Of a DNA stretch of 64,000 nt, positions 24,525 through 59,394 are shown one piece after another. The stretch's first letter is position 1, and each line of letters starts with the position of its first letter. Source of the DNA: Chiloscyllium plagiosum (lineage: Eukaryota). The notes under the pieces were generated by a model, which did no database searches, had not been told where the DNA came from, and worked only from the letters and a program-made list of their open reading frames with translations. The stretch lies in contig NC_057718.1 in NCBI RefSeq assembly GCF_004010195.1, positions 62,092,981 to 62,156,980 on the forward strand. Reading direction: 5' to 3'. The position numbers and the translations under genes were made by a program.

Positions 24525-24716
<192 letters not shown>

Positions 24717-42119: not shown

Positions 42120-42175
42120 GTAAAAAAAAATGTACAATTTGATTTAAGCTCAGTGGCTTTGACAGTTTTTGAGAT

Positions 42176-43128
42176 CAAAGTTTGTGCGAAGATTTGTAGC
42201 TCGGGTGCTCGTTGTTGTGGTTCTGTTCGCCGAGCTGGAAGTTTTTGTTGCAAACATTTCGTCCCATGGCTAGGCGACATCATCAGTGCTTGGGAGCCTC
42301 CTGCGAAGTGCTTCTTTGATGTTTCCTCCGGTGTTTATAGTGGTCTGTTCCTGCCGCTTCCGGTTGTCAGTTTCAGCTGTCCGCTGTAGTGGTTGGTATA
42401 TTCCATCAACAACTCCATCAACTCCATCAACAAACACATCGACCTCGACCCAATATACCAACCACTACAGCGGACAGCTGAAACTCACAACCGGAAGNNN
42501 NNNNNNNNNNNNNNNNNNNNNNNNNNNNNNNNNNNNNNNNNNNNNNNNNNNNNNNNNNNNNNNNNNNNNNNNNNNNNNNNNNNNNNNNNNNNNNNNNNNN
42601 NNNNNNNNNNNNNNNNNNNNNNNNNNNNNNNNNNNNNNNNNNNNNNNNNNNNNNNNNNNTGTTTGGCTTGCCCTATGATAGTAGTGTTGTCCCAGTCGAA
42701 TTCATGTTGCTTGTTGTCTGCGTGTGTGGCTACTAAGGATAGCTGGTCGTGTCGTTTCGTGGCTATCGAAACGACACGACCAGCTATCCTTGGTAGCCAC
42801 ACACGCAGACACCAAGCAACATGAATTTGACTGGGACAACACTACTATCATAGTGCAAGCCAGACAGAGAACAGCCAGGGAATTCCTAGAGGCATGGCAT
42901 TCATCCACAAACTCCATCAACAAACACATCGACCTGGACCCAATATACCAACCACTACAGCGGACAGCTGAAACTGACAACCGGAAGCGGCAGGGACAGA
43001 CCACTATAAACACCGGAGGAAACATCAAAGAAGCGCTTCGCAGGAGGCTCCCAAGCACTGATGATGTCGCCTAGCCAGGGGACGAAATGTTTGCAACAAA
43101 AACTTCCAGCTCGGCGAACAGAACCACA
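42176..43128. mobile_element. Penelope-like insertion (family A) with inverted arms and a 14-bp TSD, spanning the assembly gap
   Basis: TSD ACAGTTTTTGAGAT at 42162-42175 and 43129-43142; HEFDWDNTTII..QRTAREFLEAWHS GIY-YIG C-terminus; hammerhead motifs at 42250-42289 (-) and 43055-43094 (+). Confidence 0.9.
42498..42659. other. Assembly gap (162 N)
   Basis: Run of N. Confidence 1.
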
Positions 43129-43989
43129 ACAGTTTTTGAGATATTTGCTATTTAGACTTGTTTTAGACTTCATAGGACAAGAAAAGATCTTAGTCCAGAT
43201 CTTGATCTCCAGGTAACCTGAAACAGAACATGTGAAAGAGGTGTGCTTTGAAATTCCTTGCGTATCCCAATTTGACTGCGCAGGAGGTTTAAGCTCCTGA
43301 TAGGAAATTACACTCTGTCCATAAGCCTCCAAAAATGTCTGAAGTTCTGCAGAGTCGGAGACTTTTTTCAAGAGCTTTGACTCAACCTGAGTAGCTACCC
43401 AGGAAAAGGTTCGGGTGAGATTAGATTTTGCCTGGCTAACAATATAAAACTGACCTCCACCCTGACTCCTCATTTCATGGTCTCTCCAACACTGATCACC
43501 CTCCCCAATATCCCTGTTTTCACACCTTTTTAACCCTTCCCTGACTTTTCACCTTACCCTCTCACCCACTTGCCTTTTTGGTAGCTTACAAAGAGGCTTC
43601 AGGACATTTTTTTTTAAAGACTTTGTGCATTGCTGGAATACGTCAGTAAAGTAGTCAATAAAAAAGCGCTTGGCTTTTAAGAGTATTCACTCCAGTGTAG
43701 TCTGCATGGTTTACTGGGCTGAGATTCTTACGGTGGACTCTTCAGAAGTCAGGCCTGAAAAATCTTGGGAAGGTACGTGACTTTTTATCTGATCTGGATT
43801 AGCAATATTAACTCTGACCCAATTAGGAAAGTTTGAGTCCTAGCAATCTTTTCATTTTATAAACAGTTTTGTGCAATATAACAGGTTTACAGAACCCATG
43901 CAAAAAATAGATTGCATGAACTAATTTTAGCACCTATTCAAAAACTGCAGCTTGACTTTGGATGTGTTGCATTTTATGACTAAAGGTTT

Positions 43990-55336: not shown

Positions 55337-55435
55337 AGACTACCCAGCAAGGAGCTACCAGATGCATCATCTCCAATTCCCACGAGTAGCATACGTGTCA
55401 TAAAAAATTCCATCAGACTAACCCTTAATCGGTAG
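55337..55435 (+). CDS. PAPOLG: PAPOLG exon 22 coding part (terminal)
   Basis: ttacag| RLPSKELPDASSPIPTSSIRVIKNSIRLTLNR TAG. Confidence 0.96.
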   Translation, partial: RLPSKELPDASSPIPTSSIRVIKNSIRLTLNR

Positions 55436-56168
55436 CAACACTGACTTGTCAGGTAAAAGTCATTTGTAATTCTTAAACTATTCAAGCATGTCAGCTGTAT
55501 TTTGTTAAAATTTGCCCAGACGTTGAAAGTGGAGTTCTGCTATATTATTGTTATCCTGACATGGTGTTGAAGCCAGAAGGTGGGTTAGTCGAAACTACTC
55601 CACTATGTTTTGCAGACAAGATGCAAGAGGTACCAGAAGTACGTTTTGGTTTACATTTCAAAACATGTACTGATGACTGACTCTGGTTAACCAATATCCA
55701 TAAATCTGAGGCCTTGTTATAGAAAATGAGGAAGGAGGGGGGAGAAAATCAAAGCCTTAAATGGATGGAATAGCTTCTGGCCTCTTAAGATCAACCAGTG
55801 TCTCTGGACATATTTGTCTCTTCGCCCTGAATTATGCATTGTATGTGTGTAAATACTTGTGAACAGCCTTTTATTGAAAAACAATCAGTATTGCATTGAC
55901 AGTTCTTTTCAGAAGGCTGATGTGTAATTTTAATAATTGTAAAATAACAAAAAAAACTTGTCCTGTGTATTTTTATGTTACCCCTCCCCATTAATGTTTT
56001 GTGTATATAACAAAAAACAAAAAAAAGTAGTCATTTTAGTTATTGGTATCGGGTTTTGAGGTTTAAAATCTTTACAGTTGGAGAATTTCATCACTTCAGG
56101 AAAGCATTTATAGGTAATTTGTTTTTGATTACTTCTAATGGCCAATGACAAGTCTGCTGATTTTTCTA

Positions 56169-58030: not shown

Positions 58031-58591
58031 TTTATGACTAAGTCCTAAGGGGTGAATAATTTCTCTTTGATTTTGAAGTTGCTTTTTTTTTTAGTTCCGT
58101 ATATATTGATCATTTATAAAGTTAAAAAGAAACAAACCGGCCAGATTTCACATTAATTAAAATTGAGCAAGTCTTATAAACTCATTCCATTAAGAGTAAA
58201 GATGATTAAAAGGTAGAACCTGTCCAGAATCTTGTGACTTAAAAGGATTGGAGGGGTGTGAGGGGGCGGGAGAGAGAGAGAGAGAGACACTGAGTGGCAT
58301 GGTGGTGCACTGGTAAGCACAGCTGCCTCACCGGTATCAGCGACTTGGGTTGGAGACCACCCTCGGCGACTGCCTGTGTGGAACTTGCACATTCTCCCCA
58401 GTCTGCATGGGTTTCCTCTGGGTGCTCTAGTTCCCTCCCACAGTCCAAAGATGTGAAAGTTAGGTGGACTGGCTATGCTACGTTGCTCGTAGTATTTAGG
58501 AATATAGATGCTATGTGGATTAGCCATGAAACATGCAGGGTTAGGGGGATAGGGTGTTGTGGTTCTGTTCGCCGAGCTGGAAGTTTTTGTT

Positions 58592-58631
58592 GCAAACGTT
58601 TCGTCCCCTGGCTAGGCGACATCATCAGTGC
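58592..58631 (-). ncRNA. Minimal type I hammerhead ribozyme motif (intact core, GUU triplet)
   Basis: Minus strand GCA-CTGATGA-t-GTCGCC-TAGCCA-GGGGAC-GAAA-CGTT-TGC. Confidence 0.75.
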
Positions 58632-58789
58632 TTGGGAGCCTCCTGTGGCGCTTAGGCGGTTAGCGCAGGATTCCCATTTCCTGGCTTGTCTCAGTGTCTC
58701 TCGCCCGTAAGTGTTCAAAGTTTGTGCGAAGATTTGTAGCTCGGGTGCTCGTTGTTGTGGTTCTGTTCGCCGAGCTGGAAGTTTTTGTT

Positions 58790-58829
58790 GCAAATGTTTC
58801 GTCCCCTGGCTAGGCGACATCATCAGTGC
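58790..58829 (-). ncRNA. Minimal hammerhead motif, ACGT palindrome mutated to ACAT
   Basis: Minus strand GCA-CTGATGA-t-GTCGCC-TAGCCA-GGGGAC-GAAA-CATT-TGC. Confidence 0.6.
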
Positions 58830-59394
58830 TTGGGAGCCTCCTGCGAAGGGTGTGTCTGGCTGGGATGCTCTTTGGAGGGTCAGTGTGGATTCAATAGGTC
58901 TAGTGGCCTGCTACCACACCGTAGGAATCCTATGAAAAGCAAATATATCTGATAATCTTTTAAATTTTGTCAGTGTGTTACATCCTGTCTGTAACAGACC
59001 CACAGCCTTCGGTTAATTATTCTGAGCTGGGGTAATCATAACAACTGGCTACTGGCACACTGGAAATAATTTTAATTTTGATGAAGGGGTTTCAATCTCC
59101 CACTGTCAAGTCCGTTGAGGTACCACTGAAGCAGAAGTAGAATCCTCAACATCCTTTTTCTGTGGTACATTGAAAGCAAAATCGCAAATGATGGAGATCT
59201 GAAATAAAAGCAACACGCTGGGGATACTCTGCTCGGGTGTCATCTGTGGAGAGAGACAAAGTTAAGATTTTGAGTGTAATGACTTCTATTTGAAATTGGA
59301 AAAACGTGGAAGTAATTGGTTTTGTAATCTTTAAAAGGCAGAGACAGCTGGAACAAAAGGTCAGGGAAAGAAGATTGGAGATCAAAAATCAGTC

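Follow-up and report, generated by a model that had tools for sequence, protein, structure and literature searches.

Several described systems come close to the locus examined here. As described in PMC8557442 and PMC3846280, EN+ Penelope-like elements (PLEs) have pLTRs with a minimal hammerhead, an optional 30-40-nt tail and a target-site duplication (TSD) of variable length, form partial tandems and inverted copies, and derive from a parent with RT and, at its C-terminus, a GIY-YIG domain, all of which recur in our locus and its family. The minimal metazoan PLE hammerheads of PMC4209133 likewise share with ours an extra base between A9 and G10.1, a G10.1-C11.1 pair, a long helix II, a short helix I and a palindromic 15.2-16.2 region, but the close pairs (100-700 bp) described there lie on opposite strands whereas our pair lies on the same strand. 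For the anole Poseidon (PAc, Anolis carolinensis), PMC11167929 reports that the ORF starts at hammerhead stem II, that two internal RT start sites bracket the tail and that uncleaved RNA is the main substrate, the minimal RNA requiring the first 172 nt of the ORF. Metazoan non-LTR retrozymes resemble our locus in their tandem type I hammerheads ~200 nt apart, lack of coding capacity and relatedness to pLTRs (PMC7229834; 10.64898/2026.07.22.740005), and a PLE origin of animal retrozymes has already been proposed in the latter source.

The locus lies in a 64,000-nt stretch of the Chiloscyllium plagiosum genome (NC_057718.1, positions 62,092,981 to 62,156,980), hereafter the window, and positions count from its first letter. 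Element coordinates follow a family numbering in which +1 is hammerhead A9, the A of the ORF ATG. The features are:

55337..55436, plus strand: probable final coding exon of a poly(A) polymerase gamma-like gene; from here the insert lies ~3.1 kb downstream and antisense to the gene
58294..58935, plus strand: SINE-like host repeat; the hammerheads lie on the other strand
58551..58557, no strand: left TSD copy, AGGGTGT, at the element 3' end on the minus strand; SINE copies without the interruption are colinear
58555..58645, minus strand: repeat 2, the putative first-synthesised pass, family -22..+68, ending at +68, a site shared by the ends of many family copies
58592..58631, minus strand: second of the minimal hammerheads, with C3 at 58628 and a cut predicted after position 58595; the ACGU palindrome is intact and the triplet is GUU
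58595..58792, minus strand: hypothetical 198-nt cut-to-cut monomer RNA, an open frame of 66 codons
58644..58645, minus strand: junction of ORF +177 with pLTR -22, 2-nt overlap (CA), unique in the assembly
58646..58752, minus strand: spacer, parent ORF +69..+175, made up of the tail (+69..+107) and then N-terminal coding sequence
58753..58846, minus strand: repeat 1, the putative second-pass end, -25(-27)..+68, with parental TCG-CAGG at its start and without the family TATAAA (-58..-53)
58790..58829, minus strand: first of the minimal hammerheads, with C3 at 58826 and a cut predicted after position 58793; the palindrome of stem III is disrupted (ACAU)
58847..58853, no strand: right TSD copy, the two inner bases of which also match parent pLTR -26 and -27

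Much of what an earlier note had described at this locus was confirmed. Copies of AGGGTGT at 58551-58557 and 58847-58853 enclose 289 nt within a repeat that we take to be a SINE, a class name given without a library match. In 28 matches with both flanks adjacent, SINE copies are colinear across the site and have a single GGGTGT-like stretch (e.g. L078), which together with the TSD supports the claim that the insert arrived as one unit. Between the 7-bp TSD copies, parent -25(-27)..+177 is joined to parent -22..+68. Direct repeats of 91 nt each (58555-58645 and 58753-58843; 99% identical, offset by 198 nt) carry the two minus-strand CTGATGA...GAAA cores, which are 198 nt apart as had been reported (C3 at 58826 and 58628); the first reads GAAACAT and the second GAAACGT. 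The spacer had been put at about 67 nt, which holds (~68 nt) if the 39-nt tail is counted as pLTR, but 107 nt separate the repeats themselves. Its proposed identity proved correct: the frame LQIFAQTLNTYGRETLRQARKWESCANRLSAT read in the insert is the N-terminus of the parent ORF, and translated repeat-plus-spacer is identical to the N-terminus of a full unit (L024) at 55/58 aa. In one genomic run, which may come from the assembly's own sample, a contig crosses one flank-insert join (58439-58580) without differences. Judged from its sequence, the insert is likely to be a Penelope/Poseidon-type retroelement insertion present as one copy.

The parent family bears out the assignment to Penelope-like elements with minimal type I hammerheads. 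L024 is a full unit with 2,502 nt between two hammerheads, in which N-terminal, RT and GIY-YIG parts are all present with broken frames. More generally, RT is followed by GIY-YIG with a CxxC between GIY and YIG, in frameshifted copies: RVT_1 was matched at E 2e-11 in L026 and GIY-YIG at E 0.0095 in L030 (weaker than the Pfam cut-off), and VVYKIPCxxC..YIGQT..RIHEH was read in both L024 and L030. The CX2-5CxxC zinc finger, whose absence from the RT-EN linker is given as a Penelope/Poseidon character in the consulted text of PMC8557442, was not seen in translations of the linker. Family copies have pLTRs with a hammerhead, an optional tail, and tandem and inverted insertions, inverted copies being common, and a 15-base pLTR anchor occurs 21,560 times in the genome. 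At site 2 of the insert we found the conserved core, the extra base 9b, the G10.1-C11.1 pair and the palindromic stem III region of minimal type I hammerheads, whereas at site 1 the palindrome is broken and the C15.2-G16.2 pair lost; the insert holds ~1.5 units in all. Rfam gave no hammerhead match in the window at the gathering threshold, in L001 at E<=1, or in L165 and L166, so the two motifs are called hammerheads on the strength of their core letters and of the minimal PLE motif as published (PMC4209133).

The window holds further material of this family, namely a copy of another subfamily of the Penelope-like element at 878-1075 and, just after a poly(A) polymerase exon, an inverted pair of the same family at 42175-43131 with ends at +106 and +68 and a gap in the middle. 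Exons of the poly(A) polymerase gamma-like gene lie on the plus strand (24597-55436) at 24597, 27546, 29962, 32994, 42010, ~51690, ~52400 and 55337, the last of which (55337..55436) we presume to be C-terminal. Because this gene and the host SINE are both on the plus strand, read-through would give the antisense of the hammerheads.

We consider it probable that the insert is a one-off double-copy insertion, in which the RT went twice over the 5' part of a single uncleaved element RNA. Target-primed synthesis would have begun at the internal +68 site and stopped just short of the RNA 5' end, the predicted position of which is near -28; the cDNA would then have re-primed at +177 with a 2-nt overlap, in a zone (+170..+228) just past the predicted protein-binding region, and a second run to the 5' end would have been followed by joining to the target. 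By this route the ORF would never have been present at the locus. At this locus alone, identical letters would result from a hidden source copy or from deletion at a later time; the double-copy route is favoured because the junction is unique, family 3' ends pile up at +68 and ~+107, junctions of this kind form a hot spot, and 5' ends are matched within inserts.

The family's own ends are informative about the first steps of this double-copy route. In both loci and reads, 3' ends pile up at +68-70 and ~+100-117, and the ends at +68 and ~+107 resemble the two internal RT start sites of PAc (PMC11167929). The family TATAAA lies at -58..-53, from which an RNA start near -28, 30 nt after TATAAA, is predicted. 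PAc is further similar in its ORF start, its two start sites, its uncleaved substrate and the end of its minimal RNA at +172, close to the +177 of the insert. Re-priming after run-off at the 5' end is, however, not reported in the available text of PMC11167929, and the insert differs from the partial tandems of EN+ elements in that its upstream unit stops at ORF +177, without the full ORF.

We searched the genome for pLTR sequence downstream of anchors in the ORF. A pLTR follows within 250 nt of the +139 anchor in 33/307 copies (14 + 19), compared with 1/264 for a control anchor at +299; an anchor at +620 gave 3 matches, with no denominator. Collapsing duplicates and a shared-junction family left 25 independent junctions (25/307 versus 1/264; Fisher p=2e-6). 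On the ORF side all 25 fall at +170..+228, although the search reached ~+390; the lower bound of this zone is fixed by the anchor, and L014, located another way, ends at ~+158. Points near +175, +182, +200 and +211 are used repeatedly; on the pLTR side, the junction points of these inserts and of others like them extend from -15 to -144. End coordinates come from our own extension and BLAST mapping, with pairs tabulated by hand. A single ORF-side point can have several pLTR partners: +200 is joined to -36, -73, -99 and -54, and junctions at +174..+177 are joined to -15, -22, -32, -44 and -50. Therefore, the AAGCGC..CAGGAG resemblance to which the earlier note had drawn attention does not set the junction site, and the actual overlap at the window junction is 2 nt (CA).

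The two passes within an insert also tend to stop at the same place. Both same-orientation passes stop <=5 nt apart in 14 of 19 inserts, where 4.2 would be expected by permutation (p=1e-5); left out were inserts whose second pass misses the pLTR, L183, and L125 together with L180 (re-priming near +93..+104). The matched points themselves span -22 to -92, and in all five discordant inserts the second pass is the shorter. Inverted copies often share a stop point as well (-144/-146 in L079, -92/-93 in L072), with -61/-16 in L078 as an exception. A fixed 5' end for each RNA molecule explains these matched stops, whereas later deletion of DNA does not. The window passes end at -22 and -25/-27 and are thus 3-5 nt apart, the second being the longer, which counts against the double-copy reading. 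This clustering of junctions and the agreement of 5' ends inside single inserts form a general signature and are not peculiar to the window locus. Neither a re-priming hot spot with matched 5' ends in the open-access literature text, nor the clustering of stops at +170..+228 with matched 5' ends in the consulted text of PMC8557442 and PMC3846280, was found.

A cap-derived extra G is known from L1. All three jump junctions seen at -28 (L014, L080 and L174) carry an extra G, as copying of a cap would give. In a 30-locus check, which had no neighbouring-position control, 19 copies end at -28 with 15 G and 4 A, many of the Gs being templated, and G also exceeds A (8 versus 3) among copies continuing upstream. 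At L003 (1275-2315) a single insertion contains four hammerheads; a +219/-77 junction is crossed in three passes, in both orientations, and one of the passes has one base different. This 1-nt difference between passes at the junction favours jumping. In L002, L075 and L077, each insert has its own junction in both orientations, as would equally be expected from a pre-joined or circular template, and in L057 the junction was perhaps crossed twice; both observations speak against a strictly linear template.

The best-surviving alternative, which we regard as unlikely, is a hidden non-autonomous source: a mini with an upstream TATA-bearing pLTR, transcribed from ~-28 and retrotransposed in trans, of which the window insert would be one member of a very small family. 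Such a source accounts equally well for the parental 5' start and the +68 end, and many PLE loci contain assembly gaps (N counts). It also has precedents. A +170/-55 junction, defining a 225-nt unit of a sister subfamily, is found at five loci (L042, L048, L049, L050 and L057) on five chromosomes (C2, C14, C18, C24 and C30) with a shared variant and different ends, and is a mini that has spread (L061, considered as a further member, was rejected as a chance match). We also found 123 same-strand pLTR pairs 115-345 nt apart, with a 302-nt spacing in at least 27 (among the 100 matches listed) on 19 chromosomes. These make up a candidate young non-autonomous family:

L120, L122, L128, L129, L137 and L146-L167: 302-nt family, each copy a pLTR (..+68), a 70-nt non-element spacer and then a pLTR (-163..)

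The spacer is common to the 27 copies fetched, identical in 26 and different at its end in L120. An A9C change in the upstream hammerhead core is present in 20 of the 27, and 13 of those 20 start at -54; we infer that dispersal of copies whose upstream core is damaged is consistent with uncleaved RNA being mobilised. Against a hidden source of the window insert, the 20-base junction has a single match (<=1 mismatch) in the 3.56-Gb assembly, which has gaps, and no second +177/-22 occurs among the 14 + 19 anchored junction matches. A further pair with 198-nt spacing, L145, is built differently. Moreover, the junction of a hidden source would still need an origin, and it falls in the hot spot.

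Still less probable, in our view, is the earlier note's proposal that a full-length element inserted with its TSD and later lost ~2.3 kb, and with it nearly the whole ORF, by microhomology. Microhomology deletions are described in Penelope copies of a rotifer (PMC3846280), and the junction has a 2-nt overlap and the loose AAGCGC resemblance. Nevertheless, a deletion would need an ORF-side break inside a ~60-nt zone of a 2,502-nt unit and also a pLTR-side break <=5 nt from the element's own 5' end, and both coincidences recur genome-wide, with +174..+177 junctions paired to five different pLTR points. Loss of the ORF by simple microhomology deletion is thus disfavoured, both by the genome-wide clustering of junctions and by the agreement of 5' ends.

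We used RNA folding to explore whether a transcript of the insert could cleave itself. Stems I and II of the dimer are able to form. ACGT is kept in 85/107 sampled motif copies; with ACAU at site 1 the stem III pair is lost in the dimer, the short duplex weakening from -7.7 to -2.1 kcal/mol. The dimer fold lies 20.0 kcal/mol above the MFE, compared with 13.5 and 17.8 kcal/mol for natural tandems whose two sites are intact and with 22-29 in four others, and the insert's MFE does not stand out (z -0.56). Release of a monomer requires cuts at both sites, and with the C15.2-G16.2 pair lost from site 1 a 198-nt mobile unit is disfavoured. The bases upstream of repeat 1 are the parental TCG and not the CCA found at the junction, indicating, on three informative bases, that neither a 198-nt circle nor a tandem of units served as template. 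RNA reads (~2% of one single-cell poly(A) run) mapped mostly from other family copies, and this sample, from a library ill suited to circles, contained no junction reads and no pile-up of RNA starts. We predict that the insert is silent and releases no circle, although an internal pLTR promoter may exist despite the absent TATA. The junction is in frame, so that the 198-nt unit reads through 66 codons with no stop and a circle would be an endless ORF; this in-frame spacing is probably chance, as two of seven folded minis are in frame.

A nascent retrozyme in the strict sense, with the insert copied from, or now making, a self-cleaved 198-nt circular RNA, is therefore highly improbable: two tandem type I cores whose spacing falls in the 170-400 nt range reported in PMC7229834, the ability of dimer stems I and II to form and the possible double crossing in L057 are outweighed by the parental TCG, the broken site 1, the high-lying dimer fold, the missing TATA with host gene and SINE on the opposite strand, and reports that minimal PLE hammerheads are poor cleavers (PMC4209133), that the anole hammerhead is protein-dependent (PMC11167929) and that 8/9 Xenopus dimers stayed uncleaved (10.64898/2026.07.22.740005). 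The mobile 198-nt unit postulated in the earlier note likewise fails on the mutated site 1 and on a junction unique in the genome, the outcome which that note itself had named as speaking against it.

Compared with metazoan non-LTR retrozymes as described in the sources above, the insert fits the two-unit bioinformatic description except for its mutated site, and differs in being a single copy outside any array, in having minimal and not canonical hammerheads and in being known from DNA alone. Neither a repeated family or arrays (one junction match in 3.56 Gb) nor a circular or multimeric unit RNA as template (TCG and not CCA, three bases) was indicated. For the birth of tandems, local amplification is proposed in 10.64898/2026.07.22.740005, whereas our data indicate birth during insertion. 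More broadly, the notion of non-autonomous two-hammerhead units arising from PLE ends holds at other loci, in the five-locus and the at least 27-copy families, but not at the locus examined here. As retrozyme-like candidates, the 302-nt and 225-nt families are stronger than the window locus, and the former may already be among the retrozyme families of one cartilaginous fish in the supplements of 10.64898/2026.07.22.740005.

Other rearrangements were seen among family copies. An inverted junction, in which antisense +10 is joined to sense -28 and a short piece ending near -2 comes next, is present with different flanks at 6 of 30 sampled loci (L085, L086, L090, L095, L108 and L113), and may reflect a propagated rearranged source or a repeated microhomology jump. 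L120 contains ~5 tandem 45-nt repeats of element -137..-182 (862-1101), in the inverted part of the insertion. In L123, L144, L168, L179 and L180, same-strand pLTR pairs are split by 40-240 nt unlike the element reference; these stretches may be host DNA that was captured, or the pairs may be insertions lying side by side.

Taken more widely, it is possible, and we suggest this only tentatively, that the Penelope/Poseidon RT re-primes from the capped 5' end to ORF +170..+228 of the same RNA, where the part held by the protein would end, so that two-hammerhead tandems of 190-300 nt would be written in a single insertion with the cis signals for mobilisation kept, some of them spreading (one junction at five loci); this would be a birth route of animal non-LTR retrozymes, and the window insert a newborn that has not yet spread. 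The window locus is itself one of more than 21,000 pLTR copies and probably inert, and its value is as the footprint of a mechanism. What follows first-strand priming in Penelope transposition is an open field according to PMC11167929, on which the hot spot bears, and the junction data bear on the origin of tandem retrozymes from pLTRs, left unexplained in the text of 10.64898/2026.07.22.740005. Together, the hot spot and the matched 5' ends make sharp predictions for the existing in vitro Poseidon assay. A double-copy slip of this kind may be how small ribozyme-bearing repeats are born, and its products recur at dozens of sites.
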